DNA of 61,125 nucleotides from an uncultured Nitrospiraceae bacterium. Its GTDB lineage: Bacteria; Nitrospirota; Thermodesulfovibrionia; Thermodesulfovibrionales; Dissulfurispiraceae. Under the pieces are notes generated by a model, which saw only the letters and a program-made list of their open reading frames with translations, was not told where the DNA came from and did not search any database. A program made the translations under genes and the position numbers. The stretch lies in NCBI GenBank assembly GCA_963705105.1, contig CAVPIW010000013.1, positions 1 to 61,125 of the forward strand, read 5' to 3'. Shown piece by piece: positions 33,916-61,125 of this stretch. Numbering within the stretch: position 1 is the stretch's first letter; each line of letters opens with the position of its first letter.

Positions 33916-34004
33916 ACGGACCCTCCCTATATGATCTGTCTTCGTTCTACGTTATCCTCAGTCGTCACACACGCCCGAAGGCGGGGCACATGCGCCACCG
34001 TAAA

Positions 34005-43181: not shown

Positions 43182-43223
43182 GACGGGATCTGCATGAGAC
43201 TCTTTATGTGATCGGCAACTTTA

Positions 43224-43435
43224 CCCTGTAGTTGAATAAAAAAGCGGGGCGAAGCGCCTCAAAGCCTTGCTGAAGGCGACGATACGCCTCGTCAGCTTCG
43301 TGTTTCAGGATTCCACTCTTTGTGTCATCGACCATTGGCGTATAGGTCGTCTGCCCTTTCGATACAGGTGTCGCCGCATCAAGGTTTTCGGCGCATACAC
43401 CCCGCCTTTCCTGGCAGTGTGTTGCAACGATAAGG
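43224..43435 (+). mobile_element. hairpin MITE, copy 6
   Basis: Homologous to copies 1 and 5; 8 bp from the patatin stop. Confidence 0.85.
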
Positions 43436-43443
43436 TTTAATTT

Positions 43444-44652
43444 CTAAAGGTCCAGCAGCCTGACGGCGATGCGGTCAGCCACTTTTTTCCCGGGTGCACC
43501 CCTGGCGCTGCGAATGCCCCGTGCTTTTGCCGCCCCTCCCGCCATTTTATTGAAATAATCGGCCATGGCGCGTTGCCCTGCAGCAACGAGGGCGTTCCGT
43601 CTTTCCCCGCTCATGTCGAACTCAGTCGTTCCGTAGCCCTGGGCCGGCAACCGCACGACGAGGTGGTTGAACTCATCGATCACCATCTTGTCATGGGCCG
43701 TCGTCGCCGTGTTCGCCAGACGGGAGAGGCGCTGCACCGTCTTCAACTCTCCCGGCTTCACGTTGACGTCTACGATCAGCCCTTTTGCACTGCGGGTTTG
43801 CATCACCGGCAGAGATTCGTCGATCAGCAGGCCGAGCACGGGATCGGCGCCCTTCGGACCCATCAGCCGCGTCACCTGAGGCTCATCGGAGATGAAGAGC
43901 TCGATGGGAAAGTTAGACAGCAGCCCGCCGTCGACGATGGTGTGGCCCGTGATGTCCTTCTGCAGATATGTCCCCCAGTCCTTGTCCCAGACCACCTCAT
44001 TCCAGACCAGGGGAATGCTCATGGACATGCGCACCGCCCAGACGACGGGGCACTTTGGAGACGTCCGGTGGTTGAGGACGAGCAGGCGACCGTCCGTCGT
44101 GTCGGACACCACCATGGACAAATCGACCTGCGTCTCATCGAAAAACCGGGCAAGTGTCATGGCGCTGAACTTCCGCGTGGACCCCTTCCAGGGGCCGCTG
44201 TCGAGCTTCGCCTGCAGCCAGGAAATGAAACGATCGGCGGCGTACCAGCCTCCACGCTCTACAAAGGCGAAGAAGTGGCGAAAACGGTCGCTCCCGGCGA
44301 GCAGCTCGGCAATCGCATCGTCCAGTCGTTCCTCGATGATGTCGGGCAGGATCTTCATGTTGACATTGCGAAGCAGATCACGGGTTGCGCTGGCCCTGAT
44401 TTCCTCCTCCGTAAAGGGCGGCGGCGTGCCCATGAACCCGGCAAAGACGGACCTGCCGTTGTCCTGCTCGTTCAGCGCCTCCAGCATCTCCTCCGCTGAG
44501 TACCCGGCGGCCATCAATGTTGCCGTAATAGCGCCGGCCGATGTCCCGAGGATCCTCCCGAAGGTATGCCCCCGCCTCGTGAATTCCGCACAGGCCCCGA
44601 CGAACACCATCCCCTTTGCCCCACCGCCTTCAAAGACCAGATCGTATTTCAT
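43444..44652 (-). CDS. patatin-like phospholipase
   Basis: FEGGGAKG, GTSAG (catalytic Ser), DGG (catalytic Asp). Confidence 0.93.
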   Translation of the reverse strand: MKYDLVFEGGGAKGMVFVGACAEFTRRGHTFGRILGTSAGAITATLMAAGYSAEEMLEALNEQDNGRSVFAGFMGTPPPFTEEEIRASATRDLLRNVNMKILPDIIEERLDDAIAELLAGSDRFRHFFAFVERGGWYAADRFISWLQAKLDSGPWKGSTRKFSAMTLARFFDETQVDLSMVVSDTTDGRLLVLNHRTSPKCPVVWAVRMSMSIPLVWNEVVWDKDWGTYLQKDITGHTIVDGGLLSNFPIELFISDEPQVTRLMGPKGADPVLGLLIDESLPVMQTRSAKGLIVDVNVKPGELKTVQRLSRLANTATTAHDKMVIDEFNHLVVRLPAQGYGTTEFDMSGERRNALVAAGQRAMADYFNKMAGGAAKARGIRSARGAPGKKVADRIAVRLLDL

Positions 44653-44820
44653 ATACGGAACCTCCCGTCAATCATATTGATTTTGACCTTGTAGGAGCCG
44701 TTCCCCAAACGGTCCGAGATATTTCCTTTCAACGAAATGCTGACACTATCATTTTTCCAAGGCGCTTTGCGCTGTCTTAATCACGCAGGACAATCGTCAT
44801 CGTCGGGCCTGTCGAGGCGT

Positions 44821-47800
44821 CTATGGCCACCACCGGGTCACGTCCTTCATGACGCGAATTGTCGCGGTAACTGCCTCCTTCTCTCCGAGGTGTTTCACCA
44901 TGGGGGCGAAAAATGCGAGGTCGAGGAGCAAATCGGCACGTGACCGCTCAGCCAGGGCATGCAGAGCATCCTTCCACAGAGAGCGGGCGTCCGAAGATAA
45001 CAACGACTGCCACTGCCCGATGATACCCACCCATGCCCATGACCTGTCCCAGGCGCCCCGAGCGGCATCATGCTTCCAGACCCATTGAGCCCCCTGTATG
45101 AGGGCTTCCTTCAGGAGATCCGCCCTCTCTTCCGGGGGAAGTGTGGGGACAAGGCAGACAAGGGCCTGTGCACGCTGATGGGCATAGAGGCCCCTGTAGG
45201 CTTCCCAAAACAACTCCTTCCATTCCGCACCTGAGGATGCAGAAAGCGCCAGCCCGACGAGAATATCCGTACATTCAACTGTCGACGCCCCGGCCTTGCG
45301 CAGGATTAACAGGCGGCTGCGACAGGCGCCCAGCGTCTCACTGAGCACACTGGTTCGCTCATCGGGGCCGAGACAGGGCATCAGGGCTGCAAGGGCACGG
45401 GCGCGGAAGCCCTCATCGCCGATCTCCCGGGCCGCGGCCAGTGCCCTTTGAATGAGTTCACCGGAGAGGTAGCCCCCTGTTGCACAAGCCGCAATTGATT
45501 CGGCACGCTGCTGCCAGTTGCCCGTCAGGGTGATTGCCTCAAGGGTTTTCTCACCGGCAAGCGGTTTTTCTTTCTCAGGCAGGTGGGGTAGCAGGGGAAC
45601 CAGTGCTGCTGCGCGATACCCAGACTCAGCTCGCAGTTTCAGTGACGCAGTCATAACCTCTGCCAACACACCGGGAGGCAGATGAGAGGCCAACGTAACG
45701 ATCACACCCGCTCGTTCGGACTCCGACCGGGCATCGCTCAGAAGGCTCCTGATGAGCCCCGGCCGGTCTTGTTCCGGTATACGGGGGAGACATCTCACAA
45801 GCTCTTTGGCGCGGGTGGTGACAGGGGATATCTGATGAACAGCCGTGACCGCCTCGGCGATACGCGAGTCCGGGAGGGCAGGGACCAGACCCAGCAGTGC
45901 CTGTCCCCGCCTGTAATCGTTGTCTATTCCGTCGACGATCGCCAGAACCTCCTGCAGGTGAACTTCCGGTACTGCATGCACTATCCCGGCAAGGGCTTTC
46001 GGCAGGTCATCCGACGTGGACGGAAAAGCACGCAGTTCTTCCAGGATGTGCTTCCATGCCAGGGGTCTCAACGATTCCGGAAGCCATTCGACGAGGCGAT
46101 GCAGTTTCGCGATGCGGTCAAGTAGTGAAGGTATGGCGGCAATCATTGCGATGAGTTCCGGCGGCGCCAGAGGGCACTCTTCCATCGGGGCATGAAGGGC
46201 AAAAGCGAGAATGGCGGCGGCCTGTTCCTCATTGTCCCGAAGGGCGCGGGCAACGGAAATAGCCCGGGGAAGTAAATGTCCCGGAAGGTGAGACGCCAGC
46301 CCATCGATCAGTTTGAACCTGAGTTCGTCGCTTGCTATGCCCTCAGCGGCATCAAGACCCCTTGCGAGCAGGTCCTCCCGCAGGTGTCCTGCGAGGTTGC
46401 GCAGGGCATCGACACGCGCACTTTCTTCGTCGAGCGACAGCGCTATCCGGAGAAGTTCATCCCGGCCGGTCTCAGTCACCTTTGGCGCAAGCTCGCCGAT
46501 CGCTTCTGCCCGCCGTGTGGCATTATCGGGCTGACGGAGCGCATCGAGCGCTTCTTTCCTTAACTGATCCCTCAGCAGATCAGGAGTCCACGGTATGAGC
46601 AGCGCAAGCCCTATCGCCTTTGCGGTGTGGCAATCCTGGCCCCGCGCCTCAGCCAGGGCCTCTTCCAGGACAGGCAGCGCATCCTCTGCGGAAAGGGACG
46701 AAATGAACGCCGCCATCGCGCGGACCTTAACGGGATCTGTCCCTCCCCCCATATACCTGACAGCCTCCCTCCCTTCCCGCACCAGATCTAGCCGCACGGC
46801 ATCGGAGCAACGAGGCAGCAATGCAGCAATCGCCTCAGCGCGGGCATAGGGATTCCCGAGCGACCGCACTTTCGCCACTGCGCGCTCCAGATGATGGCCA
46901 GTCATCTCCGGCACGAGAAACGCGAAGGCTTCGGCAACTTCGCCGTCATCTACAAAGGAAAGAACCGCTTCCTGCGCCCTTTCCAGGGTCTCCGCACGTT
47001 CTGCGCCATGCTGTCGTCGCGCCAGGGCTGCCAGGGCTTCCACGACCTCCTTTTTTGGTGACGCCGCTGCGAGGGTCCGAAGCTCTTCCGCGACGCGCGT
47101 CAGGAAGCCGGTGGGGAGGAATGGAATCAACCCGCCGAGGGCAACGGCACGGTCATCGGCAAAAGGAATCAACAGCGCCATATCGATCGCCTCGGCAAGC
47201 CTCCCGGGGGGCAGGACGCCCGCGATTCGAGCCAGCTCATATGCCCTGGTCGACTCATATTGAAATGCTCTCAACAACGCAAACATCTCACCGGTGATCT
47301 CATCGCGCCGTTCACCGTCGCAACGGGCAGAAAGGGCGGCAAGGGGCCGCACCCTCTCATGGACGTTCTGAATCGAGCGGGCCAGCGCATAGGCCCTGTC
47401 GAAATGTTCGGCTGTCAGGCGAGGCGCCAGGATTGATAGCGCCGTCGCCCTGCCCTCCTCGTCGGTGATTTGCTCGATCGAGCGCAGGGCCTGACCTGAC
47501 GTCCAGATGCCCTGATCGAGCAGAACGCCAAGCAGCGACGGTGGCAGGCTTGAAGACATGCTATGGACGCTGGCACTTACAAGGGCATACCGTACTTGGA
47601 GGGCTATGTCGAAAGACGCGTCTGCCGCAGCCCATGCAACTGCCGTATCGGCCAGGAAACCCGTCAGGCTTCCCTCCCTTTGTTCCTTGATCGCGGCCCA
47701 CCGCTCGCTGATGAGCTCATGGAGGCTTTCGGCCCATTCCGCACGGGCGCTGTGACTGGCCAGATGGGCAAGTCCGTAGTCGTCGATCCCCTCGATCTTC

Positions 47801-49299
47801 GCCTCCTTCCAGGACGAAGCGCCGTCCCGGTAGGCGCAGACAGCCTTTCTATGCCAATCCCGGGGATCGACAAAAAGGTCCGTCGTTGCGGAACAGGTCT
47901 TCGTTTCTCCGCTCGTCAGAAACTCCGGCATTGTGGCATGGTAGAACCTGCAGCGGTCTCCCTCTTCGTCCAGAAACTGCCGCAGGCACTCCTTCGCCTC
48001 GATCACATCGTCCCTGCTCCCGGCAATTCCGCCCAGATGACGGATCTGATCGGCGCTCAGCGGCTCGAACGCCACCGACAGCACACCGAGCGCAGGCTTG
48101 TACACCTCCGTCCAGATCGAGAGGAAATGGTCCTTCCCCGTCGACTCATCCCTCACCCTGATGCTCCTGTCCCTGACAGACGGGCTGTTCTTAATTTGAT
48201 GCAGAAAGAATGCATAGAGCTCCTGCATGTCTTTGGGAAGCTCCCTTAAGGATAGTAATCCCTTCAACAGACTAAGCCCTTCCCATTCATTCTTCTCTTT
48301 GACCGTCAAGGCCTGGTCAATTCCACGTGCAAAGGCGTCCAGGTACCCAATGTTCCCGTCAGCCCTGTTGACCGCTTCGCTAACAAAATCTGCAATTTTG
48401 CGTTTTTCACTCTTAAGGCTCGCAGCAACCTCAGGGACGCTTGCCAGCTTCTCGACGTATGTCTTCAACTCATCGTGAACACGATTGTCCTTTGATTTAA
48501 TGGTAAGCGGTCTGATAGAGGTTTGCTTCTTCTCACAAAAGGTGACGACATCTCCCTCAAGAGGCCGGGAGGTCAAAATGAACCGCACGTTATGAGGCAG
48601 TTCCGGGCAGTCGATCAGCCACTTCAGAAGTGTACCTTCAGATCCGTGGTACCGGATCTCGTCGAGAGCATCGACAAGAATGACAACCTTTTTCCCCGGG
48701 TTAAGCTTGAGGAGTAACGAGGCCGGATCGAAGAGCGCCATGAACTGGAGGTCCTTCTGATCAATAAGACGGGGATCAATGACTAGTTCGTCAACCCGGA
48801 GACCGACGACGGTTCCTTTGTTTCGTTCGACCTGCTGTTGTATCTGTAGAACCTTTGTGTAAAAAGGAGAGGCAAGAATCCTCTTGACGTCAGCCCCCGT
48901 GACCGCGCCTTGTTCTTCTACCGTCCCGATGCGCTGTTCGATGACTATCTTCACCTGTTCCTGAGTAAACAGTTCCGGGAATATCGCTGCCAATTGATAG
49001 CCGATGCGCAGCAGGAAAGAATGGACGCCCACGTCTCCCAGCGGAGTACGCTGGTCCCGCCGAATAAAATAGCGCGGCCAGTCGGGGTGATCATGCGCAA
49101 GCTGCGCCATGAAGGCGCTCTTGCCGGAGCCCGGTTCCGCCGTCAGGAACACGAAGCGGCACTCAGGGTCTTTGAATTTTTCGGCCACTTCATCAGCCAG
49201 CCAGTCACGGCGGACGAAACGCGGTCTATCATAATAGGAAGCAATGACAGAAGCGAAAAATAAGTCATCGTATTTGGAGCTATCAATCTCCGGGCTCAT
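44821..49299 (-). CDS. NACHT/STAND-like NTPase with long C-terminal helical repeats (bacterial NLR-like)
   Basis: PRFVRRDWL, AEPGSGKS (Walker A), ILVDALDE (Walker B), ILTSR, FYHAT; many RAxALxxLAPxL repeats. Confidence 0.88.
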   Translation of the reverse strand: MSPEIDSSKYDDLFFASVIASYYDRPRFVRRDWLADEVAEKFKDPECRFVFLTAEPGSGKSAFMAQLAHDHPDWPRYFIRRDQRTPLGDVGVHSFLLRIGYQLAAIFPELFTQEQVKIVIEQRIGTVEEQGAVTGADVKRILASPFYTKVLQIQQQVERNKGTVVGLRVDELVIDPRLIDQKDLQFMALFDPASLLLKLNPGKKVVILVDALDEIRYHGSEGTLLKWLIDCPELPHNVRFILTSRPLEGDVVTFCEKKQTSIRPLTIKSKDNRVHDELKTYVEKLASVPEVAASLKSEKRKIADFVSEAVNRADGNIGYLDAFARGIDQALTVKEKNEWEGLSLLKGLLSLRELPKDMQELYAFFLHQIKNSPSVRDRSIRVRDESTGKDHFLSIWTEVYKPALGVLSVAFEPLSADQIRHLGGIAGSRDDVIEAKECLRQFLDEEGDRCRFYHATMPEFLTSGETKTCSATTDLFVDPRDWHRKAVCAYRDGASSWKEAKIEGIDDYGLAHLASHSARAEWAESLHELISERWAAIKEQREGSLTGFLADTAVAWAAADASFDIALQVRYALVSASVHSMSSSLPPSLLGVLLDQGIWTSGQALRSIEQITDEEGRATALSILAPRLTAEHFDRAYALARSIQNVHERVRPLAALSARCDGERRDEITGEMFALLRAFQYESTRAYELARIAGVLPPGRLAEAIDMALLIPFADDRAVALGGLIPFLPTGFLTRVAEELRTLAAASPKKEVVEALAALARRQHGAERAETLERAQEAVLSFVDDGEVAEAFAFLVPEMTGHHLERAVAKVRSLGNPYARAEAIAALLPRCSDAVRLDLVREGREAVRYMGGGTDPVKVRAMAAFISSLSAEDALPVLEEALAEARGQDCHTAKAIGLALLIPWTPDLLRDQLRKEALDALRQPDNATRRAEAIGELAPKVTETGRDELLRIALSLDEESARVDALRNLAGHLREDLLARGLDAAEGIASDELRFKLIDGLASHLPGHLLPRAISVARALRDNEEQAAAILAFALHAPMEECPLAPPELIAMIAAIPSLLDRIAKLHRLVEWLPESLRPLAWKHILEELRAFPSTSDDLPKALAGIVHAVPEVHLQEVLAIVDGIDNDYRRGQALLGLVPALPDSRIAEAVTAVHQISPVTTRAKELVRCLPRIPEQDRPGLIRSLLSDARSESERAGVIVTLASHLPPGVLAEVMTASLKLRAESGYRAAALVPLLPHLPEKEKPLAGEKTLEAITLTGNWQQRAESIAACATGGYLSGELIQRALAAAREIGDEGFRARALAALMPCLGPDERTSVLSETLGACRSRLLILRKAGASTVECTDILVGLALSASSGAEWKELFWEAYRGLYAHQRAQALVCLVPTLPPEERADLLKEALIQGAQWVWKHDAARGAWDRSWAWVGIIGQWQSLLSSDARSLWKDALHALAERSRADLLLDLAFFAPMVKHLGEKEAVTATIRVMKDVTRWWP

Positions 49300-49390
49300 C
49301 GCTTGTCATCCCTTCATCATGTCCATCAAAAGGACGCATGGTGCGGTGACATGTTTTCCCGCTCAGCTGCAGCATCACAGAAGAATTCGA

Positions 49391-50549
49391 TCAATGTTTC
49401 ACTCTTTTCCGTGTCAACTTGGCGCATTGCTGTTGCAGCCACGTGATGCGTTGGCCGATCTTCAGTATGTTGTCCGCCGAGAAACCAGGATCCTCAGGAG
49501 CCAGCTCATATGTCCTCTGCCACTCCTGAACTGCCCTTATGCACCATTCTTCTTTGTGCGTCGGGTCGCTCTCCATCTTGTCCTCGAATGCAAGGGCCAG
49601 ATCGTTGTGCGCTGCCGTGTAGGTTGGGAGCAAATCGATCGCCCGTTTATATGATGCAATGGCAGCGTCCGTGTTTCCTAATGCGTGCTCAATATTTCCA
49701 AGGCCATTGTGAGCGCCTGCATTATCGGGCTCCTGCTGCGCGACATGCCGGAAAAGTCTCGCAGCCTCTTCGTAGTATTTCTGCTTACTGGCGTGGTCGT
49801 TCATAGCGTCCGCGACTTGTGCAAGAGTTTTGGCTATGTACCCACGCTGTGTCAGTGCGCTTGGACCCAAGGGGTCCGTATGCATGGCCGCACTGCGAGC
49901 GTCTTCTAACTTCTTTACTGCAGCCCCGTAATTCTGTGTATTGATGTCATTCCATGGCTCGGGATTGCTGTATCCAGGCGATGGATTCGAACGAGTCAGA
50001 ATATTCCGTGTCTATGGCACAGGCCTGGTGAAAGTATTTCAGGGCCTCTTCGTATTTCCGGTCATATGCCGCCAGCATGCCCAAATGGTAAAGTGTCTGG
50101 GCGGATACAGGCAGGCCTCTGGACGCGACATCCTTCTGTGCGGCCTCAACTTCGGCAATCTGACGACTGACGTTCTCAGGCACGGACTGAGTTGCCAGGA
50201 CCTTCAGGGTCTGTTTGTCGACGCCCTGCAGTGCAGCAATCCGATTGACGATCTCATCGAGCGCCTGAGGCCCCAGGACCATGACGTTGTTCGTGATCGT
50301 CTTCCGGTCAACATAGTCACCCTTTACGATCTTCTTCTCCATCTGATTGACCGTACTCCGGATCGTAATCTTCCCTTTCACTTTTCCGATCGCCACCCCC
50401 GTAACCTTGCCACCTTCGACCGTGCCCACCTCCTGGGCAACGTTTATCCTGGCAGATGGCTTCGCGGTCTTCTTGATTTGTACACCGCAATTTGGGCAGA
50501 AACTTGCCTTGTCAGGAAGGGGTTCGCAACCGCACTTTGGGCATTTCAT
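49391..50549 (-). pseudogene. zinc-ribbon + beta-repeat + TPR protein, split by a 1-nt frameshift near 49950
   Basis: CPKC/CPNC N-terminus; GCC ATG G AAT GAC: removing one G joins 50549-49947 to the 49885-49391 TPR ORF (AMNDINTQNYGAAVKKLEDARSAAMHTDP). Confidence 0.8.
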
Positions 50550-50594
50550 GGACACTCCTTCACAAACTCATTTTGACCATTTTCGCCTCACTCA

Positions 50595-51803
50595 TCAGGC
50601 GCCCGGGATCAGATTCTCCTTGACCACTTCTGCGACGCCCTTTGTAAGGTTGGGAAACCGGATCTGTTCATAGCCGATGTAGTCATACCCAGCGTACACC
50701 AACACCGCCAGCAACGCCACCCGGAGAGCCGTGACGACCGCGAGAACCTGAGGAAATTGAGCCTGGACGAACTTGGACAGCCCGATGACGTCCCCAATCG
50801 TGTTGATGCGCCCTACCAGGACTGTGAACTTGTCGGACAGCGCCGCGACGGTAATCGCGGTCGCGTTGATCACCTCCACCCCGGCCGCGGTTTTCGCCAG
50901 CCAACCCGGCAGCGCTGCATCAAGCGCATCAACCTTGTAGAGCTTGCCGACCAACTTCTCGAATAGTTCAATTTTGCCGGTCTTCTGGATCTCGTCAAGC
51001 CACGCCTTGATTCGCTTGCGGGCTTCGCCTTCGACCTCTCTGCCCAGCAGGGCCAAGATCTTATCGTAGACGTTGAGCACAGTCCTGGTGGCTGTCGAGA
51101 TAGCGTGTTGAATGAGCGCGCTCGCCCCCTCCTTCACGCGGTCAAACACCTTCGCGATGTCTTTACTCAGCAATCCCGCGCTCTCCATGACCGCACTCCA
51201 CTCAGTCTTGAACACCAACTTGAAGGCAAGATCGCCGCCGACCTCAACCACCCTCTGTGAGATGGCGCTCGCCGTCACGGTGGCCGCTTGCTGCAGTGCT
51301 TTCTTGGCCGTCTCAGGAGTGTCCGCCGCTTTTGGGGCGCGCCGAGCCTTACTGGGAGCGACTAGCCCTGCGGAAACGGTCTTCGCCATCGCCTTCTCCA
51401 TATTGTCGATGGCCTCGCGCAGGCTGGCACCGCGTGCTGCGCGCGTTATCCCGCGAGGCGCCCGTTCGGCTGCTGAAGGAGGACCGGCTGTCTCGCTCGC
51501 AGCGATCTGCATCAGCTCAGTCGCAACCTGCAGTTCCGCTGCAGCCTGCGCCAGCAGCTGCCCGCTGATGCCCTCACGCAGGGCCGGGTCCGGCGCCTGC
51601 AGGTAGACCTGAGCCAGCGGCGCCATTTTCTCCGAAATATCGGCTATAACTTCTGCGTGATCGATCAGCGTCTCCACGGGTATGTCTGCGGCGCCGCGCG
51701 TGACTGCCCTATTTCCGGCGGGCCGCGCATCCCTCAGCGCCCGGAACCGGGCGAGGTAGTCCTTCGTTGCCTCTTCATACGTGTGGTACACCTGTCTCTC
51801 CAT
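50595..51803 (-). CDS. uncharacterised Ala-rich helical protein with hydrophobic C-terminal segment
   Basis: 402-aa ORF, RBS AAAGGAGA, co-oriented in cluster; VLAVVTALRVALLAVLVYAGYDY. Confidence 0.8.
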   Translation of the reverse strand: MERQVYHTYEEATKDYLARFRALRDARPAGNRAVTRGAADIPVETLIDHAEVIADISEKMAPLAQVYLQAPDPALREGISGQLLAQAAAELQVATELMQIAASETAGPPSAAERAPRGITRAARGASLREAIDNMEKAMAKTVSAGLVAPSKARRAPKAADTPETAKKALQQAATVTASAISQRVVEVGGDLAFKLVFKTEWSAVMESAGLLSKDIAKVFDRVKEGASALIQHAISTATRTVLNVYDKILALLGREVEGEARKRIKAWLDEIQKTGKIELFEKLVGKLYKVDALDAALPGWLAKTAAGVEVINATAITVAALSDKFTVLVGRINTIGDVIGLSKFVQAQFPQVLAVVTALRVALLAVLVYAGYDYIGYEQIRFPNLTKGVAEVVKENLIPGA

Positions 51804-51850
51804 TGTTGATCTCCTTTCGGGGTACTGAGGTCGCCTCTATCCGGATGTCA

Positions 51851-53302
51851 TCAAAGACTGCCCTCCCACCCCACGATCTCTCCCCCTTTCTTTATTGTCT
51901 TGACTTTCTGTTTCACGGTGGCCTGGGTGCCTTCCTCGGTTTCCTTACTTTTGATCCCAACCATCTTGCCTCCCCTACCCACAATCCCCGCGCCTTGCCG
52001 TACATCGAGGGAACCTTTAAGCTTGGTAACCTTGATCCCGGTCATCTTGCCTTCAAGCGTATCTGTAACGGTCTGTCGGATGATCTTCCGGAACTGCTCG
52101 GCAGCCCGTCCAGCCCGCTGCATCCGTTCGGGAAATAGTTGGCCGTCAGGCAAGCGGCTGTAAAGGACAGGCACGCCCCATTCGACATCCACGTTGTGTT
52201 CGAGATCCGGATTGGTGCTGGTCTCTCGCAGCATCGCTCGTCGTGCCGCCGACATCGCTTCGTCCAGTGACAGGCCGATGGCAAGCGCGCTATAGAAGGC
52301 CCGGCTGAAAGCCTTGGCGCTGACGTCGATCACCTCATACTGCATGGCGACGATCGCCGGGATTTCCCTGGCGGCCAACGCACTGGCAAGACCATCCCAA
52401 GAGGCTCTTTCCTGACGTTCACCGGAGTAGCACGCCCCCAGGACGACCAGCCGCACGCCTGCATCCTGGACGATCGCCGCGAGGTCGCTGGCGTGCAACC
52501 TGGCCTCTGCCCTGCTTTTCTTGTCGGCAACGAGGAGCAGCGCGGCTTCGTCATGCGGGCCTGCAGTGGACCCCTCAGGCCCGGGAATGCCGTGCCCCGC
52601 AAAGTGGAAGATATGAGTTCCCTTAGGCAGTTTCTGGGCCAATTCATCGGGGGTCGCATTCGTGAGCACCGGGCCGAGCGTAAAGCGTACCCCTTCCACG
52701 TTGAAGTCCTTCAGGGACTCCCGGATCACCGCGAGGTCCTTGTCCAACCGAAGCTTCGGCTGTTTCTTCGGTAAGGCTGATGCGAATACCATTCGGATGT
52801 CGGTCACATCCTTCGTCGTCTTTTCCTGCGTCGGGTGGGGGTGCGGTATGGGTTCGTGACGCACAATTGAAATGCGTGGGTTCAGCGCGAGAAACCCGAG
52901 CATGGACTTGGATTCGGGACCGCCAAGGAAGTCGAGGTAGGCATATTCCCAGGGCCACGTCTTCAGAACGTGGTCGGCAATGATCAGGCGCAGCCGCACG
53001 CCGCCATCGATGCCGGCCCGGTCATAAGCCGCTCGAAACCGCTCCCGAATGACCCCCTCAGGTAGGAGGCAGTTAGCAAGCTTCTTGCCCAGCACAACCA
53101 TGCTGCCAAAAGTCCCCTGTTTAGCAACCAGCAACAGCATGGCATCGGATGGAGGACTCTCTTGGAGGGGAACCGAAATAGGAGTAATCGTCTCGCCCAC
53201 CTCTGGAGTCGGCAACAGAGCCACTTGGCACACGCTCTTTCCATCCGGAGAGCGTGTCAGGTAGAGGTTAAAGTCCATATATTGTCGTGGTTTTGTTGCC
53301 AT
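51851..53302 (-). CDS. CHAT-domain (caspase-like) protease with C-terminal beta-repeat tail
   Basis: WPWEY, HFAGHG, VVLGACYS, VAMQYEV, FSRAFY, WGVPVLY; RBS AGGAGG before ATG 53302. Confidence 0.92.
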   Translation of the reverse strand: MATKPRQYMDFNLYLTRSPDGKSVCQVALLPTPEVGETITPISVPLQESPPSDAMLLLVAKQGTFGSMVVLGKKLANCLLPEGVIRERFRAAYDRAGIDGGVRLRLIIADHVLKTWPWEYAYLDFLGGPESKSMLGFLALNPRISIVRHEPIPHPHPTQEKTTKDVTDIRMVFASALPKKQPKLRLDKDLAVIRESLKDFNVEGVRFTLGPVLTNATPDELAQKLPKGTHIFHFAGHGIPGPEGSTAGPHDEAALLLVADKKSRAEARLHASDLAAIVQDAGVRLVVLGACYSGERQERASWDGLASALAAREIPAIVAMQYEVIDVSAKAFSRAFYSALAIGLSLDEAMSAARRAMLRETSTNPDLEHNVDVEWGVPVLYSRLPDGQLFPERMQRAGRAAEQFRKIIRQTVTDTLEGKMTGIKVTKLKGSLDVRQGAGIVGRGGKMVGIKSKETEEGTQATVKQKVKTIKKGGEIVGWEGSL

Positions 53303-54168
53303 ATCGTCTTCCTCCTGCAGGGCTTCCAATCACGAGAATATCTGCCTCTTCTTGTTCGTCTTCTTCCCCTCCAACTGCGGGTGCTGAGGATAGCCGCCGT
53401 CGTCCAGCAGCACCTGGAGGCGGTCATGCACCTGTTGATACGTGATCTGATAGTTCAACTCCTTGATGGCCTGCAGGGCATAGTAGGTCATGGCGCCGTG
53501 ATAGGTCCCGCCGATGAGGGCGTCATAGGAATACTCCTTGTCCGAGCACCCGCTCAGGAGCACGTCCTTCATCTTCGATTCCGGGAACTTGATCTTCCCC
53601 TTCGGTTTTGCCTTAAAGGGATTCTCCAGCACCTTCATGCCCATGAGGGCCGGATTGAGAAACCTTATTCTCCTGTCATCAGGCGTTTTCAATCCGGGAA
53701 TGACCTCGGCGACTGCCGCCCGCGTCACCGTACCGGAGAAGCAGGAGTCAGAGATGACCGTCATGCGGACACCCTTTTGCAGCTCCGCAAACATGTTACG
53801 CAGCTCATCGTCGATAATCAGGTTGGAATCGCAGTCATAGGGACAGAGGGCCTCATCGTACTTTTCTTCATCGCCGCCCTCCTCTGCAACATAGGTTCCG
53901 TGCGATGAGTTGGTGAAGACGAGGATATCGCCGGACTGGGCGCCTGCCAGCAGGTCTTTAATGCCGGCGATCATTTTCTCCTTCGTGGCCTCGGTATCGA
54001 GCATGAGTTTCACGTCGGCCTTTGCGAAACCGAAATGATCGATAATGAGTCCCGCCCACGCCTTTGCGTCATTGACACAGCCGTTGAGATCGTTGCCGTC
54101 ATAGGGATAATCGTTGATGCCCACACAGAGAGCCTGGGGTCGGTTGTCAATAGTGGACACCAAACCTC

Positions 54169-55032
54169 TCATGCTGCCTGTGCATTCATATGGTATGCTT
54201 TTTCAAAAGCAGCAGGTGAAAGATACCCAAGTCTTGCCTGCCGCCGCTGCCGATTGTAGAACACCTCGATATACTCGGTGATCTCCCGAATCGCCTCCTG
54301 CCTCGTCTTATACCGCCTGTGATGCACAAGTTCACTTTTCAACACTCCCCAGAAACTCTCCATCGGCGCGTTGTCATAGCAGTTGCCCGTCCCGCTCATT
54401 GAGGCATTCATCTTCAAGTGTTTCAGCAGCTTCCTGTAGTCATGCGCACAATACTGACTGCCCCGGTCAGAGTGGTGTATCAGCTCTGCAGGAGGACGTT
54501 TCGCCCAGATCGCTCGTAACAACGATTCCCTGACAAGGTTCTGTGTTATCCTCTCCCCCATCGCATACCCCACAATCTCTCCCGCAAAAAGGTCCTTATG
54601 CGCTGCAAGATATAGCCACCCTTCCTCCGTCGGGATATACGTGATGTCGCTGACCCACACGCGGCCCGGTGCCGTCGCCTCAAAGTCTTGCTGTAGCAGA
54701 TTGTCCGCCACAGGTAACGTATGCCGCGAGTCCGTTGTGACCTTGAACCGCCGCTTTTGTTTGCACCGTATCCCCAATTTCCTGCGTATCCTCTTGATTC
54801 GGCTCACTCCTGCTTTCACCCCGTGGGCTGCCAAATCCTTCTGCAGACGCTCCGGACCATACGTCCCTCGTGTGCGCTCGTGTGCCGCCTGTATCTCGAC
54901 CTCCAACCGCGCCTCCTCTTTGGCATGGGCGGACGCGGGCCGACTGACCCAGGCAAAATAACCGCTCGCCGATACATCAAAAACACGGCTCATAAACGGG
55001 ATCGGATACTCGAGTCGCAATTCATTCATCAT
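54169..55032 (-). CDS. IS3 transposase OrfB
   Basis: Identical protein to 9918-10781. Confidence 0.95.
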   Translation of the reverse strand: MMNELRLEYPIPFMSRVFDVSASGYFAWVSRPASAHAKEEARLEVEIQAAHERTRGTYGPERLQKDLAAHGVKAGVSRIKRIRRKLGIRCKQKRRFKVTTDSRHTLPVADNLLQQDFEATAPGRVWVSDITYIPTEEGWLYLAAHKDLFAGEIVGYAMGERITQNLVRESLLRAIWAKRPPAELIHHSDRGSQYCAHDYRKLLKHLKMNASMSGTGNCYDNAPMESFWGVLKSELVHHRRYKTRQEAIREITEYIEVFYNRQRRQARLGYLSPAAFEKAYHMNAQAA

Positions 55033-55343
55033 CGCGTACCTGGCTGCGACTCCCTCGCAAAGTACGCGGCCGCTTTTTTTAACAGGTCCCGCTCCATCCT
55101 CGTCTCTATAAGCTCTTTCTTGACTCTTGCCAGTTCCATCTCTATCTCGGTGAGGGGCCGATAGTTCTTGCCGATGTCCTTGAGTTTGCCGGCCTTATAC
55201 GCCTTGACCCAGTTGCCCAACGTAGATGGCGGCAACGACAACCGATGGGCCACTTCAGGTAATGACATGCCTGTCTCCACAATCATCTTCACTGCTTCCT
55301 CTCGAAATTCCTTCGTGTACCGTCCTTGCGGAATCCCTTTCAT
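55029..55343 (-). CDS. IS3 transposase OrfA
   Basis: Identical protein to 10778-11092. Confidence 0.95.
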   Translation of the reverse strand: MKGIPQGRYTKEFREEAVKMIVETGMSLPEVAHRLSLPPSTLGNWVKAYKAGKLKDIGKNYRPLTEIEMELARVKKELIETRMERDLLKKAAAYFARESQPGTR

Positions 55344-55570
55344 TCTGACACCTCCGTCTTTCTTAGTTTACCGACTTTGGTGTCCACTTTTTCCATCTAC
55401 TCAAGCCCTCTTTGCCATGCCGTCCTCCTTCCGGGGACCATGATGTCCCCAACGCGGTCTTTACTCGTGTTTTTTATCTGCGCCTTTTCCCTTTCATTCT
55501 GTTGCCACGGTATATATTGTGCGCGCCTCCGGTTTTTTTGACCGCATCAAAGTTTTTGGTCCCGTCGCAC

Positions 55571-56569
55571 TCAGGAAAACATGCCCTCCGCGAGCCATTC
55601 CGATCGGTACACGGTCCAGAAATCCACTGCCAGCCCCTCCTCAACATATTTGTAGGGGAGATAGCCGTACCCGTTCTCGCCCCAATCATCGCCCCAGGAG
55701 TTCCGGAAAATCAAACACCCTTCCTTCATCTTTTTCCCGGCGTCCTCGATTTCGATATCATCGTCATAGCCCACCGCCAAAACGGCGTGACCGCCCTGCA
55801 GTCTGTCCGTCGACGTCGGATAGGGCACGTAGGGAGAATCGGTCATCGACGTGTAAACAGGAAACCCGAAGGCCACCACAAAGCCCGCCGCCAGGACGTA
55901 TTTGACGGCGCCCAGCGTCTCTTTGCCGCTCGCATGGTAAGGATCCAGACGGGCGTACTTCATCGCCTTGAAGTTGTTGGCATACCCATAGAGAAACGCG
56001 TCCGGCTCGTCCTCATAACGACTGATGTCATAAGGGCAATACTCCTCGGGGGGCACGCCGAAGCCGGCGGCGGCCTTGATGGTGGTGCGAATGTGAGCGC
56101 CCGTATCCCCTGTCCAGCCAAGCAGCCGGCGGGTCACTTTATATAGAAACAGCCGGGACAGGTCGGTGTGCTCGCCGATCCCGCGCCGCATCATATACTC
56201 CAGCATGCCGATGACGGCGTGGGCGGTGCATGAGCCGAGGGCGTCCTGGTTTTCTACCGAAGAACAATACGAGCGATTGTCTGCGCGATTTGGAATTTTC
56301 GTCGTCACAGGCGCAAGGCCAAGACGCACGTTCGCTGTCTGTAAGGGTTCTTTAAATGCGGGCGTGTCCAGGCCGTGATCGCGGCAGTCCGGGATATCGG
56401 GTTGCCAGCCGCCGGCAACCTGACGTCGACCGGAGCGCGGTATAATGAGGCCGGCCCCTGTTTTCATAAGGACGGCCTTGCCGTCGGCACGGGAAATAAC
56501 GACACCTCCTCCGGCGCGAGATGCAATCGGGCGGGCCCCGGCCTTTGACGCAGTTTTGTCTGTTTTCAT
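55571..56569 (-). CDS. papain-like cysteine protease (peptidase C1), copy 1
   Basis: NQDALGSCTAHA, LSRLFLY, GGHAVLAVGYDD, RNSWG. Confidence 0.93.
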   Translation of the reverse strand: MKTDKTASKAGARPIASRAGGGVVISRADGKAVLMKTGAGLIIPRSGRRQVAGGWQPDIPDCRDHGLDTPAFKEPLQTANVRLGLAPVTTKIPNRADNRSYCSSVENQDALGSCTAHAVIGMLEYMMRRGIGEHTDLSRLFLYKVTRRLLGWTGDTGAHIRTTIKAAAGFGVPPEEYCPYDISRYEDEPDAFLYGYANNFKAMKYARLDPYHASGKETLGAVKYVLAAGFVVAFGFPVYTSMTDSPYVPYPTSTDRLQGGHAVLAVGYDDDIEIEDAGKKMKEGCLIFRNSWGDDWGENGYGYLPYKYVEEGLAVDFWTVYRSEWLAEGMFS

Positions 56570-56699
56570 GACGATTTCTCCTGATCTCTTCGTATGGCGT
56601 TAGCTCGGTTAATGAACGACCCGGGGGACCCTTTTCAATCCCCCGGATACATGCAACAGGCGTGGCCGTTGTCCCCGCTTTCTCGGCAGGCGACAGACA

Positions 56700-57515
56700 T
56701 CACGTGAATATCTGCCTCTTTTTGTTCGTCTTCTTCCCTTCCAGTTGCGGGTGCTGGGGGTAGCCGCCGTCGTCCAGCAGCACCTGGAGGCGGTCATGCA
56801 CCTGCTGGTGCGTGATCTGATAGTTCAGCTCCTTGATGGCCTCGATGGCGTAATAGGTCATGGCGCCGTGATAGGTCCCGCCGATGAGGGCGTCATAGGA
56901 GTATTCCTTGTCCGTGCAGCCGCTGAGCAGGAGCGCCTTCATTTTTGACTCCGGGTACTTGATCTTCCCTTTCGGTTTTGCCTTGAAGGGATTCTCGAGC
57001 ACTTTCCTGCCCATGAGAGCGGGGTTGAGAAACCTGATCCTTCTGTCGTCAGGGGTCTTCAGTCCGGGAATGATCTCGGTAATGGCCGCCCGCAGCACAG
57101 TTCCCGAGAAGCAGGAGTCCGAGACGACCGTCATGCGGACACCCTTTGCAAGCCCTTCAATGAGCTCGCGCAACTCGTCATCGACGATGAGATTTTCTGC
57201 ACAGTCGTAAGGACAAAGGGCCTCGTCGTACATCTCCTCATCTCCGCTCGTGTCCGCCAGATATGTTCCGTGCGACGAGTTTGTGAAGACGAGGATATCG
57301 CCCGACTTTGCACCTGTCAGCAGGTCCTTGATGCCTGCGATCATTTTCGCCTTTGTGGCCTCGGCGTCGAACATGAGCTTCACATCGGCCTTCGGGAACC
57401 CGAAGTGATCGATGATGAGACCGGCCCACGCCTTCGCGTCGTTGACGCACCCGTTGAGATCGTTACCGTCATAGGGATAATCGTTGATTCCCACACAGAG
57501 AGCCCTCTTTGCCAT
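56700..57515 (-). CDS. metacaspase (peptidase C14) B, copy 1
   Basis: SSHG / DSCFSG dyad; intact paralog of metacaspase A. Confidence 0.95.
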   Translation of the reverse strand: MAKRALCVGINDYPYDGNDLNGCVNDAKAWAGLIIDHFGFPKADVKLMFDAEATKAKMIAGIKDLLTGAKSGDILVFTNSSHGTYLADTSGDEEMYDEALCPYDCAENLIVDDELRELIEGLAKGVRMTVVSDSCFSGTVLRAAITEIIPGLKTPDDRRIRFLNPALMGRKVLENPFKAKPKGKIKYPESKMKALLLSGCTDKEYSYDALIGGTYHGAMTYYAIEAIKELNYQITHQQVHDRLQVLLDDGGYPQHPQLEGKKTNKKRQIFT

Positions 57516-57831
57516 GCCGTCCTCCTTCCGGGGATTATAATGTCCCCAGGACCTTTTATTACATGTTCTTCAGGTGTTTCCCGTACTCCTCCGAAATCTC
57601 CCGTAGCAATATCTTACTAATTCATACCACAAAATGACATTCCTGTCTTGACCTTTTTTGCTTTTCTTTTGACATATTTTCTCAGGAATGATGAAATCGC
57701 CGTTGCGGGGGAGTTACGGACGGGGAATGCTCAGCGTTGTCTGAGCGGCAGGAGAAGTCAGGATGGGCTTTACAGAGGTCGGAGCGGGGATAACCGGACG
57801 ATACAACTCGGATTAGGAAATAGAGCTGTTC

Positions 57832-58191
57832 CTATTGGCGCTTAAGCCCCAGGGCCTTCGAGTATGATTCCTCGGAAAAGCCGTAGATCTTTTTCCCGTT
57901 GATGATGGCAAAGGGAACGCCCTTGCGTCCGGAAAGCTCCTTCTTTCGCTCTGCTGCCCTGCTGTCCTTTTCTATATCGTAGGCCACATACCGGATGCGA
58001 TTGTCCTGAAGGAACTTGACGGCTTTCGCGCAATAGGGGCACCAGTCGGTAATGTAAATTTCGACCGTCGCTGCTTTCTCGTCGGCAGCAATTATCCGTC
58101 CGCCAGGTTTCGAAGACTCTCCGAAACAGAGACACTGTGTTCCCAGTATTACGGCTACCATCATTGCAAAAGCAACAAGCTTCACTCTCAT
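57832..58191 (-). CDS. exported glutaredoxin/NrdH-like protein, copy 1
   Basis: Signal peptide, WCPYC, GVP...ING...GF. Confidence 0.88.
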   Translation of the reverse strand: MRVKLVAFAMMVAVILGTQCLCFGESSKPGGRIIAADEKAATVEIYITDWCPYCAKAVKFLQDNRIRYVAYDIEKDSRAAERKKELSGRKGVPFAIINGKKIYGFSEESYSKALGLKRQ

Positions 58192-58422
58192 ATCCGTCTC
58201 CTTCAGGTTTGTATGCAACTCAACTATGCTGTGACATCCGTGGTCTTTCTGTTAGAGCCCTCTTTGCCATGCCGTCCTCCTTCCGGGGACCATGATGTCC
58301 CCAACGCGGTCTTTACTCGTGTTTTTTATCTGCGCCTTTTCCCTCTCATTCTGTTGCCACGGTATATATTGTGCGCGCCTCCGGTTTTTTTGACCGCATC
58401 AAAGTTTTTGGTCCCGTCGCAC

Positions 58423-59421
58423 TCAGGAAAACATGCCCTCCGCGAGCCATTCCGATCGGTACACGGTCCAGAAATCCACTGCCAGCCCCTCCTCAACATA
58501 TTTGTAGGGGAGATAGCCGTACCCGTTCTCGCCCCAATCATCGCCCCAGGAGTTCCGGAAAATCAAACACCCTTCCTTCATCTTTTTCCCGGCGTCCTCG
58601 ATTTCGATATCATCGTCATAGCCCACCGCCAAAACGGCGTGACCGCCCTGCAGTCTGTCCGTCGACGTCGGATAGGACACGTAGGGAGAATCGGTCATCG
58701 ACGTGTAAACAGGAAACCCGAAGGCCACCACAAAGCCCGCCGCCAGGACGTATTTGACGGCGCCCAGCGTCTCTTTGCCGCTCGCATGGTAAGGATCCAG
58801 ACGGGCGTACTTCATCGCCTTGAAGTTGTTGGCATACCCATAGAGAAACGCGTCCGGCTCGTCCTCATAACGACTGATGTCATAAGGGCAATACTCCTCG
58901 GGGGGCACGCCGAAGCCGGCGGCGGCCTTGATGGTGGTGCGAATGTGAGCGCCCGTATCCCCTGTCCAGCCAAGCAGCCGGCGGGTCACTTTATATAGAA
59001 ACAGCCGGGACAGGTCGGTGTGCTCGCCGATCCCGCGGCGCATCATATACTCCAGCATGCCGATGACGGCGTGGGCGGTGCATGAGCCGAGGGCGTCCTG
59101 GTTTTCTACCGAAGAACAATACGAGCGATTGTCTGCGCGATTTGGAATTTTCGTCGTCACAGGCGCAAGGCCAAGACGCACGTTCGCTGTCTGTAAGGGT
59201 TCTTTAAATGCGGGCGTGTCCAGGCCGTGATCGCGGCAGTCCGGGATATCGGGTTGCCAGCCGCCGGCAACCTGACGTCGACCGGAGCGCGGTATAATGA
59301 GGCCGGCCCCTGTTTTCATAAGGACGGCCTTGCCGTCGGCACGGGAAATAACGACACCTCCTCCGGCGCGAGATGCAATCGGGCGGGCCCCGGCCTTTGA
59401 CGCAGTTTTGTCTGTTTTCAT
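58423..59421 (-). CDS. papain-like cysteine protease (peptidase C1), copy 2
   Basis: As copy 1 except YVPYP to YVSYP. Confidence 0.93.
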   Translation of the reverse strand: MKTDKTASKAGARPIASRAGGGVVISRADGKAVLMKTGAGLIIPRSGRRQVAGGWQPDIPDCRDHGLDTPAFKEPLQTANVRLGLAPVTTKIPNRADNRSYCSSVENQDALGSCTAHAVIGMLEYMMRRGIGEHTDLSRLFLYKVTRRLLGWTGDTGAHIRTTIKAAAGFGVPPEEYCPYDISRYEDEPDAFLYGYANNFKAMKYARLDPYHASGKETLGAVKYVLAAGFVVAFGFPVYTSMTDSPYVSYPTSTDRLQGGHAVLAVGYDDDIEIEDAGKKMKEGCLIFRNSWGDDWGENGYGYLPYKYVEEGLAVDFWTVYRSEWLAEGMFS

Positions 59422-59551
59422 GACGATTTCTCCTGATCTCTTCGTATGGCGTTAGCTCGGTTAATGAACGACCCGGGGGACCCTTTTCAATCCCCCGGAT
59501 ACATGCAACAGGCGTGGCCGTTGTCCCCGCTTTCTCGGCAGGCGACAGACA

Positions 59552-60367
59552 TCACGTGAATATCTGCCTCTTTTTGTTCGTCTTCTTCCCTTCCAGTTGC
59601 GGGTGCTGGGGGTAGCCGCCGTCGTCCAGCAGCACCTGGAGGCGGTCATGCACCTGCTGGTGCGTGATCTGATAGTTCAGCTCCTTGATGGCCTCGATGG
59701 CGTAATAGGTCATGGCGCCGTGATAGGTCCCGCCGATGAGGGCGTCATAGGAGTATTCCTTGTCCGTGCAGCCGCTGAGCAGGAGCGCCTTCATTTTTGA
59801 CTCCGGGTACTTGATCTTCCCTTTCGGTTTTGCCTTGAAGGGATTCTCGAGCACTTTCCTGCCCATGAGAGCGGGGTTGAGAAACCTGATCCTTCTGTCG
59901 TCAGGGGTCTTCAGTCCGGGAATGATCTCGGTAATGGCCGCCCGCAGCACAGTTCCCGAGAAGCAGGAGTCCGAGACGACCGTCATGCGGACACCCTTTG
60001 CAAGCCCTTCAATGAGCTCGCGCAACTCGTCATCGACGATGAGATTTTCTGCACAGTCGTAAGGACAAAGGGCCTCGTCGTACATCTCCTCATCTCCGCT
60101 CGTGTCCGCCAGATATGTTCCGTGCGACGAGTTTGTGAAGACGAGGATGTCGCCCGACTTTGCACCTGTCAGCAGGTCCTTGATGCCTGCGATCATTTTC
60201 GCCTTTGTGGCCTCGGCGTCGAACATGAGCTTCACATCGGCCTTCGGGAACCCGAAGTGATCGATGATGAGACCGGCCCACGCCTTCGCGTCGTTGACGC
60301 ACCCGTTGAGATCGTTACCGTCATAGGGATAATCGTTGATTCCCACACAGAGAGCCCTCTTTGCCAT
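59552..60367 (-). CDS. metacaspase B, copy 2
   Basis: Identical protein to 56700-57515. Confidence 0.95.
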   Translation of the reverse strand: MAKRALCVGINDYPYDGNDLNGCVNDAKAWAGLIIDHFGFPKADVKLMFDAEATKAKMIAGIKDLLTGAKSGDILVFTNSSHGTYLADTSGDEEMYDEALCPYDCAENLIVDDELRELIEGLAKGVRMTVVSDSCFSGTVLRAAITEIIPGLKTPDDRRIRFLNPALMGRKVLENPFKAKPKGKIKYPESKMKALLLSGCTDKEYSYDALIGGTYHGAMTYYAIEAIKELNYQITHQQVHDRLQVLLDDGGYPQHPQLEGKKTNKKRQIFT

Positions 60368-60683
60368 GCCGTCCTCCTTCCGGGGATTATAATGTCCCCA
60401 GGACCTTTTATTACATGTTCTTCAGGTGTTTCCCGTACTCCTCCGAAATCTCCCGTAGCAATATCTTACTAATTCATACCACAAAATGACATTCCTGTCT
60501 TGACCTTTTTTGCTTTTCTTTTGACATATTTTCTCAGGAATGATGAAATCGCCGTTGCGGGGGAGTTACGGACGGGGAATGCTCAGCGTTGTCTGAGCGG
60601 CAGGAGAAGTCAGGATGGGCTTTACAGAGGTCGGAGCGGGGATAACCGGACGATACAACTCGGATTAGGAAATAGAGCTGTTC

Positions 60684-61043
60684 CTATTGGCGCTTAAGCC
60701 CCAGGGCCTTCGAGTATGATTCCTCGGAAAAGCCGTAGATCTTTTTCCCGTTGATGATGGCAAAGGGAACGCCCTTGCGTCCGGAAAGCTCCTTCTTTCG
60801 CTCTGCTGCCCTGCTGTCCTTTTCTATATCGTAGGCCACATACCGGATGCGATTGTCCTGAAGGAACTTGACGGCTTTCGCGCAATAGGGGCACCAGTCG
60901 GTAATGTAAATCTCGACCGTCGCTGCTTTCTCGTCGGCAGCAATTATCCGTCCGCCAGGTTTCGAAGACTCTCCGAAACAGAGACACTGTGTTCCCAGTA
61001 TTACGGCTACCATCATTGCAAAGGCAACAAGCTTCACTCTCAT
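60684..61043 (-). CDS. exported glutaredoxin/NrdH-like protein, copy 2
   Basis: Identical protein to copy 1. Confidence 0.88.
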   Translation of the reverse strand: MRVKLVAFAMMVAVILGTQCLCFGESSKPGGRIIAADEKAATVEIYITDWCPYCAKAVKFLQDNRIRYVAYDIEKDSRAAERKKELSGRKGVPFAIINGKKIYGFSEESYSKALGLKRQ

Positions 61044-61125
61044 ATCCGTCTCCTTAGGTTTGTCAACCTTGATGTGACATCCGTTGTCTTTCTGTTATCG
61101 TCGGCGAAGGCTCTTTATTCAATTC

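Follow-up and report, generated by a model that had tools for sequence, protein, structure and literature searches.

A conserved metacaspase–CHAT protease core with an all-helical partner and a shared beta repeat: a candidate inflammasome-like module from an uncultured Nitrospiraceae bacterium

Whether a closely packed run of protease, NTPase and lipase genes forms one signalling unit, and what such a unit would do, is the question raised by positions 43,444 to 57,515 of contig CAVPIW010000013.1 (assembly GCA_963705105.1), from an uncultured Nitrospiraceae bacterium. The window analysed here is this entire contig (C13) of 61,125 nucleotides, one of 19 in a host genome of 4.2 Mb. In order of transcription, the minus strand carries metacaspase B, a C1 protease, metacaspase A, a CHAT protease, a 402-amino-acid (aa) protein that we call H402, a Zn-ribbon/TPR protein, a STAND NTPase and a patatin, with intergenic gaps of 27 to 168 bases. 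The original prediction, made from the DNA letters alone, had seen eight consecutive genes of an inflammasome-like system; strand and order are borne out, but the genes are not all intact, as an IS3 element splits metacaspase A and the TPR gene reads as two open reading frames (ORFs). We give an even chance to the reading that the locus is an undescribed intracellular immune-signalling module, a STAND–CHAT–metacaspase–H402 cascade coupled by a repeat.

A conserved protease core with variable sensors

Pattern scans found 16 related loci in genomes and 30 in metagenomes, leaving 34 distinct loci once 12 with near-identical H402 were removed. What these conserve is a core of metacaspase, CHAT and H402, followed by variable STAND or TPR sensors. 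Counted by hand, the core CHAT adjoins H402 in 19 of the 25 distinct loci with upstream DNA, lying directly upstream in 18 and downstream in one; a metacaspase of at least 55% identity lies upstream in 12 of the 20 loci that extend 500 bases or more past the core, and a co-oriented STAND gene downstream in 19 of the 28 with at least 600 bases on that side. Copies of metacaspase B beside H402 in related loci are 67 to 76% identical to it. Co-location of the module genes in other genomes, the lack of which would have counted against the original prediction, is far beyond chance, and the sensor-adaptor-protease architecture that it proposed is conserved across phyla. The order of the core is kept in bins of Chloroflexota, Methanobacteriota, Promethearchaeota, Acidobacteriota, Pseudomonadota and Bacillota. 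The constant partner of the proteases is H402.

The module is real and rare, and it occurs in unrelated bacteria and archaea. Carriers are binned as Chloroflexota, Methanomicrobia, Methanosarcinales, Promethearchaeota, Acidobacteria, Proteobacteria and Oscillospiraceae, labels that can be wrong for short contigs. H402 was found in none of 40 relatives of the host (0/40), and the CHAT tail in none of 401 sampled genomes from the phylum of one carrier (0/401). The sensors differ from locus to locus, with WD40, HEAT or TPR repeats and NACHT-like or nSTAND1 NTPases. Such patchy spread with rapid exchange of sensor repeats is the pattern of conflict systems, and a role in immunity or conflict is quite likely. 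The same pattern counts against a proteolysis module for development or stress response in anaerobes that form aggregates, comparable to cyanobacterial HetF and unrelated to invaders. A weak match of the CHAT protease to the HetF profile (43 bits, with a cut-off of 1200) and the position of the locus outside the defence island of this contig would fit that alternative, which we nevertheless hold to be very improbable given the absence from host relatives, the sharing between bacteria and archaea and the exchanged sensors.

Accessory genes also differ between loci and include extra CHATs, metallo-beta-lactamase-fold proteins, clostripain and patatin. In the window, the papain-like C1 protease (55571..56569, minus strand, 332 aa, PF00112) is a local accessory between two metacaspase paralogues, and the patatin-like phospholipase (43444..44652, minus strand, 402 aa, PF01734) is likewise an accessory. 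Close homologues of the patatin occur in 3 of the 34 distinct loci and of the C1 protease in none (0/34), which rules out either one as part of the core. The eight-gene set as a whole is not the conserved unit, and patatin and C1 protease are not supported as constant parts. The upstream glutaredoxin was also rejected as a module member, as it has a signal peptide-like N-terminus and is absent from related loci.

Inspection of motifs agrees with the earlier claim that the catalytic sites are intact: SHG/DSC in the metacaspases, FAGHG/GAC in CHAT, Q..GSC/GH/NSWG in the C1 protease and GGGAKG/GTSAG/DGG in the patatin, together with a Walker A motif (AEPGSGKS, residue 54) and a Walker B motif (ILVDALDE, residue 207) in the STAND NTPase. 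The core metacaspase of the window, metacaspase B (56700..57515, minus strand, 271 aa, PF00656), is intact with His82 and Cys135 at its motifs, and the His-Cys dyad is invariant among 117 CHATs and 12 metacaspases. The acidic residues of GCVND and SDSC, which we take to form the metacaspase pocket for basic residues, are present. Pfam supports Peptidase_C14 (twice), Peptidase_C1, CHAT, TPR, NPHP3_N/AAA_16/NACHT and Patatin at the locus, with no family for H402. No signal peptide is evident in the locus proteins by eye and hydropathy, and a promoter and terminator scan gave signals at chance level.

A beta repeat shared by sensors and protease

The CHAT protease (51851..53302, minus strand, 483 aa from an ATG at 53302, PF12770), a core member, ends in three repeat units of 26 to 27 aa (51854..52093, minus strand) that are beta strands in the AlphaFold2 (AF2) model. 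The same beta repeat lies inside the NTPase domain of the STAND/NACHT-type protein (44821..49299, minus strand; 1492 aa, with C-terminal helical repeats and without an N-terminal effector domain), where two units (48784..48951, minus strand) are inserted after Walker A and before Walker B. It also occurs in the Zn-ribbon/TPR protein (49391..50555, minus strand; one gene with an apparent frameshift near 49950), which has one unit at 50379-50450. This link between the three proteins had not been seen in the original prediction. The consensus is h.h.Q.V..V..G.h.Gh.h. Among 117 close CHAT homologues, at least one unit is found in every tail (117/117) and two to three in 114; the tail repeat has Gln in 90% and Gly in 98% and 99% at its conserved positions, with proline depleted about 16-fold. 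Relative to the CHAT body, G, V, I, Q, N and T are enriched, as is K, while P and L are reduced; the composition typical of BASS-type (bacterial amyloid signalling) motifs has Q, N, G, V and I raised and K, P and L lowered.

A hidden Markov model (HMM) of the repeat, built from CHAT tails alone, was run over the six-frame translation of the host genome (34,171 segments). Only three segments score above 9 bits, and they belong to CHAT, NACHT (two units, 20.5 and 16.5 bits) and the Zn-ribbon/TPR protein. Across the related loci, 34 ORFs reach at least 9 bits, all of them CHATs, STANDs or operon neighbours, as against 0 of 5970 shuffles. For 18 aligned NTPase rows (17 distinct) from H402 loci, the best match always falls at one insertion site after Walker A, and 14 of the 18 reach at least 5 bits there, compared with 1 of 1800 shuffles; none of 23 STANDs from other places reaches 3 bits. 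The sensors hold one or two units, placed N-terminally on the STAND only in the nSTAND1 partners of two loci (L018 and L021) and internally in the window NACHT and its clade.

A profile search with the repeat in 1.84 billion representatives gave 74 matches, mostly CHATs. Other carriers include a fusion with the repeat between CHAT and NB-ARC; a few matches to Ig-repeat proteins seem to be noise. A further set consists of helical proteins of 150 to 190 aa with an N-terminal hydrophobic helix and two C-terminal repeat units (P0261, P0271, P0276, P0280, P0284, P0286-P0288, P0294, P0295, P0300, P0304 and P0306), which we call Bell-like by resemblance, as they have no Pfam match. One cluster of them is from Streptomyces, and they were unmatched in viral contigs and plasmids. 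As these small proteins also end in the repeat, it behaves like a bacterial amyloid signalling sequence (BASS) motif, and judged by sequence it is apparently a BASS-type motif of an unlisted family. A Protein Data Bank (PDB) sequence search with the repeat tail gave no match.

Other settings of the repeat were also observed. In P0267, P0273, P0277, P0281 and P0283, all of them small proteins, two to three units come after a pair of predicted membrane helices. In one Chloroflexota bin, two proteins carry the repeat, as judged by eye: a Zn-ribbon protein with an additional BASS-like stretch, ERSVAIGG (L060:970-1800), and one whose terminal domain is formylglycine-enzyme-like (L062:1492-2856). 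In a Methanomicrobia variant (L005:9992-12913), the core CHAT comes after H402 and has a charged helical tail in place of the repeats.

BASS motifs, some on CHAT proteins, were defined by Dyrka 2020 (10.1101/2020.01.06.895854), and BASS11 signalling in antiphage defence, with CHAT and NACHT among its carriers, was described by Ibarlosa 2024 (10.1101/2024.11.07.622273), as far as the accessible parts of both papers go. Like the BASS pairs (Bell/NLR for BASS1-10, Bab/Agp for BASS11), the locus has a Gly/Val/Ile/Gln-rich motif of about 25 aa on an NLR-like sensor and on a neighbouring effector, with two to three pseudorepeats at the effector C-terminus and fewer on the sensor. Unlike them, the motif of the main STAND clade is inside the NTPase domain rather than N-terminal, and it is embedded in a three-gene protease core with H402. 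Compared by eye with examples of BASS1-10, the repeat sequence is dissimilar, and it lacks the Asp-Asn of BASS11. In the accessible part of PMC8086366 (one validation fold and 18 unassigned Bell-side sequences by eye, plus a word search), no family has the repeat consensus; the nearest by eye, cluster C06, differs in spacing.

How the repeat would act was approached by structure prediction. The AF2 model of CHAT has a caspase/separase fold, with the tail strands at modest confidence and three units within one chain. Its top Foldseek match is SAVED-CHAT (8tl0, E 3e-8), and VIA alignment to Csx29 gives Z 20.2 with a root-mean-square deviation (rmsd) of 3.8 over 302 aligned residues. The predicted complex of the NACHT domain with the CHAT tail scores 0.62 (runs 0.69, 0.62 and 0.29), compared with 0.00 for the best of three controls. 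Of 157 complexes with known structures, 116 reach this mark, as do 2 of 215 mismatched pairs, a calibration that is only rough for self-made alignments. Contact agreement between runs is at least 95%, and the partner predicted local distance difference test (pLDDT) at least 81. In the predicted interface, the first NACHT unit stacks in parallel and in register against the last one of CHAT, with Gln-Gln (122:62) and Gly-Gly (131:71 and 135:75) contacts. The model supports repeat-to-repeat binding of NACHT and CHAT, and coupling of the sensor to CHAT by the repeat is, in our judgement, likely.

The repeat could instead serve for docking, as a beta-solenoid that is soluble and finite, or be a structural remnant of the NTPase clade; sensor and CHAT would then form a fixed stoichiometric complex like Craspase, with no polymer. 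The folding of three CHAT units into strands within one chain would suit such a module, as would the charged, Lys-rich surface and the persistence of degenerate inserts in unlinked NTPases. We consider it improbable: two to three effector units to one or two sensor units fits the pattern in the available part of the amyloid-signalling report (10.1101/2020.01.06.895854), and the proline depletion, the Gln and Gly ladders and the presence of the repeat on Bell-like proteins all match amyloid signalling.

H402, a candidate membrane effector

H402 (50595..51803, minus strand) has about 400 residues and is unmatched in Pfam, NCBIfam, PADLOC and PDB sequences. Homologues form 123 clusters at E of at most 0.001; among the matches listed, identities are 39 to 74%, and none has a Pfam domain. 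AF2 predicts an all-helical protein (pLDDT 86, predicted template-modelling score 0.88) with an N-terminal four-helix bundle and flexible loops at 31-38, about 105-120 and 150-160. The structure has no Foldseek match at E of at most 0.001 in PDB or BFVD; its best VIA-align hits (Z 11.2, rmsd 3.1, 120 aligned) are generic four-helix bundles covering residues 7-146 only, a comparison that hardly touches the C-terminal domain. No longer fused form was found among 8000 candidates (weak evidence), and H402 has no profile similarity to the Bell-like carriers. As 10 of the 14 inner branches of the H402 tree are open, we claim no donor.

Two features make H402 a candidate membrane effector released by a protease. 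Each loop region has one conserved arginine (Arg36 94%, Arg121 93%, Arg155 91%), and 83 of 104 aligned rows have all three, with a mean conservation of about 50% for the loops. In addition, 104 of 104 rows have, about 50 residues from the C-terminus, a 19-residue window with a hydropathy of 1.6 or more (median 2.4). No part of the protein is better conserved than this hydrophobic helix (353-371) and the GYDYIG stretch after it. Metacaspases cleave after Arg or Lys, according to the accessible portions of two reports (10.1101/2021.06.07.447441; 10.1101/2023.06.23.546230).

A different role for H402 would keep the same sensor-CHAT coupling. It could be a membrane-anchored scaffold, or an inhibitor or decoy substrate restraining the proteases, with killing by broad metacaspase proteolysis, as for PCaspase, or by variable enzymes such as patatin and hydrolases. 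A single hydrophobic helix near the C-terminus suits a tail anchor, and one locus (L003) consists of metacaspase, H402 and a hydrolase only. Precedents in the available parts of the literature are the broad specificity and dedicated inhibitor of PCaspase (10.1101/2023.06.23.546230) and a constant transmembrane (TM) component beside caspases (Kaur 2020, PMC7159879). We rate this role as rather unlikely, as conservation of the helix and GYDYIG goes beyond the needs of an anchor and the variable enzymes are missing from most loci.

The bacterial gasdermin profile (bGSDM) matches no locus protein and none of the 104 H402 rows, while the same profile gives 291 bits on a gasdermin elsewhere in the host genome. 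In 16 other carrier genomes, mostly incomplete bins, no gasdermin was found (0/16) by the search that recovers the one of the host. Gasdermin acting in trans as a general output was rejected on this count, and the module would need an output of its own, a place that H402 would fill.

The host gasdermin locus itself (G000:C6, about 676000-686100, L094:6254-16106, minus strand) comprises a metacaspase, the gasdermin (291 bits, PADLOC bGSDM), a 469-aa caspase, a 374-aa protein with a Gly/Asp-rich BASS-like N-terminus, a 1766-aa nSTAND1 protein and two patatin fragments. By analogy only, its layout parallels the module, with gasdermin in the place of H402.

Proposed mechanism

The module probably works like a small inflammasome. 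As a first step, suggested by what STAND proteins do elsewhere, a trigger would be bound through the variable repeats of the NTPase or of the Zn-ribbon/TPR protein, and this sensor would oligomerise. The exposed 26-aa repeat of the sensor is then predicted to seed in-register parallel stacking of the two to three CHAT repeats and so cluster CHAT, much as amyloid signalling motifs of fungi and bacteria do. Once clustered, CHAT would turn active and cut the stand-alone metacaspase, a step proposed by analogy to SAVED-CHAT and PCaspase. Next, H402 might be cut at its conserved arginines in the loops, either by the metacaspase, specific for Arg/Lys, or by CHAT itself. With the N-terminal bundle gone, the hydrophobic helix near the C-terminus would be free to attack or depolarise the membrane, so that the infected cell would be killed or arrested. 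Cell death, the outcome put forward in the original prediction, and phage defence are both putative. Patatin, the C1 protease, metallo-beta-lactamase-fold proteins and extra CHATs would be exchangeable accessories. The full chain, with H402 as the cleaved membrane effector, is a tentative proposal to which we give clearly less than an even chance.

Several observations weigh against this proposal. The Methanomicrobia variant retains H402 and CHAT, but its CHAT is without repeats and no metacaspase or STAND gene is near. The locus of the window lies about 25 kb from the defence island of the contig, amid ordinary genes. The repeat is Lys-rich and without the Asn ladder typical of many BASS motifs. 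Two NTPases of the same clade (L067 and L068), the closest among the 23 STANDs from other places, keep a degenerate insert at the same site, by eye and below 3 bits, on contigs without CHAT or H402, so the insert may be a feature of the clade. One of the three complex runs reached only 0.29, and a model may stack beta repeats that are homologous irrespective of binding. Finally, H402 matches no known pore former in fold and sequence searches, and its hydrophobic helix may do no more than anchor the protein.

In its strongest form, the proposal would amount to a full prokaryotic inflammasome. An NLR with an amyloid seed in its NTPase domain would start the polymerisation of a caspase-like initiator protease; this would switch on an executioner metacaspase, and the metacaspase would in turn release H402, a new class of alpha-helical pore-former. 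Such a pathway would be found in bacteria, methanogens and an Asgard archaeal bin. We regard this form as doubtful. If true, NLR sensing, amyloid-type templating and initiator-executioner caspase cascades, so far shown separately in prokaryotes, would be joined in one operon; there would be a new family of signalling motifs, used by Bell-like proteins too, and H402 would point to an unknown executioner fold. The presence in archaeal bins bears on the origin of eukaryotic caspase signalling logic.

Comparison with known systems

As in the original prediction, no named system could be recognised, and no PADLOC system matches the locus. Searches of the open-access literature turned up no account of the module; as motif logos, bioRxiv supplements and papers behind subscription lay outside them, the motif or H402 may already have been listed. 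Nor is the module described in the accessible parts of PMC12261475, PMC8195603, PMC7159879 and PMC12881547. It is conserved and apparently undescribed, with two new parts, the repeat family and H402. It resembles NLR amyloid signalling joined to a CHAT-metacaspase cascade and, by the comparisons below, is not a gasdermin, Avs, CBASS, Craspase or EACC1 system.

One protease parallel is the SAVED-CHAT to PCaspase cascade of type III-B CRISPR in Haliangium, which also has CHAT and a second caspase-like protease and in which polymerisation activates CHAT, according to the available part of the report (10.1101/2023.06.23.546230). Here there is no SAVED, cyclic oligoadenylate or CRISPR component, and no cas gene among the annotated ORFs of the window; the polymerising element would be the STAND-seeded beta repeat, and, unlike in SAVED-CHAT and Craspase, where CHAT is fused to a SAVED or TPR sensor, CHAT is stand-alone with a beta tail. 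Bacterial gasdermin systems likewise place C14 and CHAT proteases with NACHT, TPR or WD40 proteins beside a putative membrane effector, but H402 is all-alpha and outside the bGSDM profile. Avs and bNACHT proteins share the STAND NTPase with C-terminal sensor repeats; the protein here has no fused N-terminal effector, with Walker A already at residue 54, and no PADLOC match. In contrast to CBASS with CapV, no CD-NTase gene is among the locus ORFs, and the patatin scores 20 bits with CBASS_lipase (cut-off 200). The two-gene EACC1-caspase conflict system, in the accessible part of Kaur 2020, also has a constant single-TM component beside a caspase with variable partners; the TM domain of EACC1 is short and bears alpha+beta extensions, whereas H402 is 400 aa and all-alpha, and the metacaspase reaches 26 bits with caspase_w_EACC1 (cut-off 140).

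Integrity of the locus and its surroundings

Metacaspase A (53330..55418, minus strand; start codon at 55418, body at 53330-54134) is interrupted after codon 5 by an IS3-family element (54135..55403, minus strand, rve/HTH_Tnp_1) with a 4-bp GGCT target duplication, of which 1263 bp are identical to other copies in the host genome. Its paralogue metacaspase B, 87% identical, is whole. The assembly was compared with run X1, the best-matching public run, which may be the source sample and hence is not independent evidence. No IS-free joint is among those listed for X1, but its contigs break at repeats. The IS end at 55397-55403 is without two G residues present in the copy at 11125-11154, which again points to errors in the consensus at this place. 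The Zn-ribbon/TPR gene is split into ORFs 49947-50555 and 49391-49885; since its homologues in two related loci (L006 and L016) are single proteins of 377 and 387 aa and an X1 contig has one base fewer at 49950, the break is probably an assembly error or a strain difference.

At the contig end, glutaredoxin, metacaspase B and C1 protease recur in a second copy (58256..61097, minus strand), 99.3% identical to 55404-58254 (about 2.85 kb each). As X1 depth over the duplicated stretch is not doubled and X1 contigs are a mosaic of the alleles of both copies, with second-copy letters at 3 of 6 differing sites, this copy is doubtful and is treated as a probable assembly artefact.

Elsewhere in the window, the defence island at 1171-19125 holds a PLD-SNF2 helicase, a type IIG restriction-modification enzyme, DndB-like, REase-ARP, WYL and ARPP-1 genes, and IS3 and Mutator-family elements. 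A further caspase/C13-like protein of 770 aa is encoded on the plus strand at 27983-30295. An interspersed repeat of about 215 bp (43220-43437) has hundreds of genome copies, two of which flank, in inverted orientation, a PAS hybrid kinase at 40540-42909, and a short tandem array with an 8-bp unit lies at 33997-34076.

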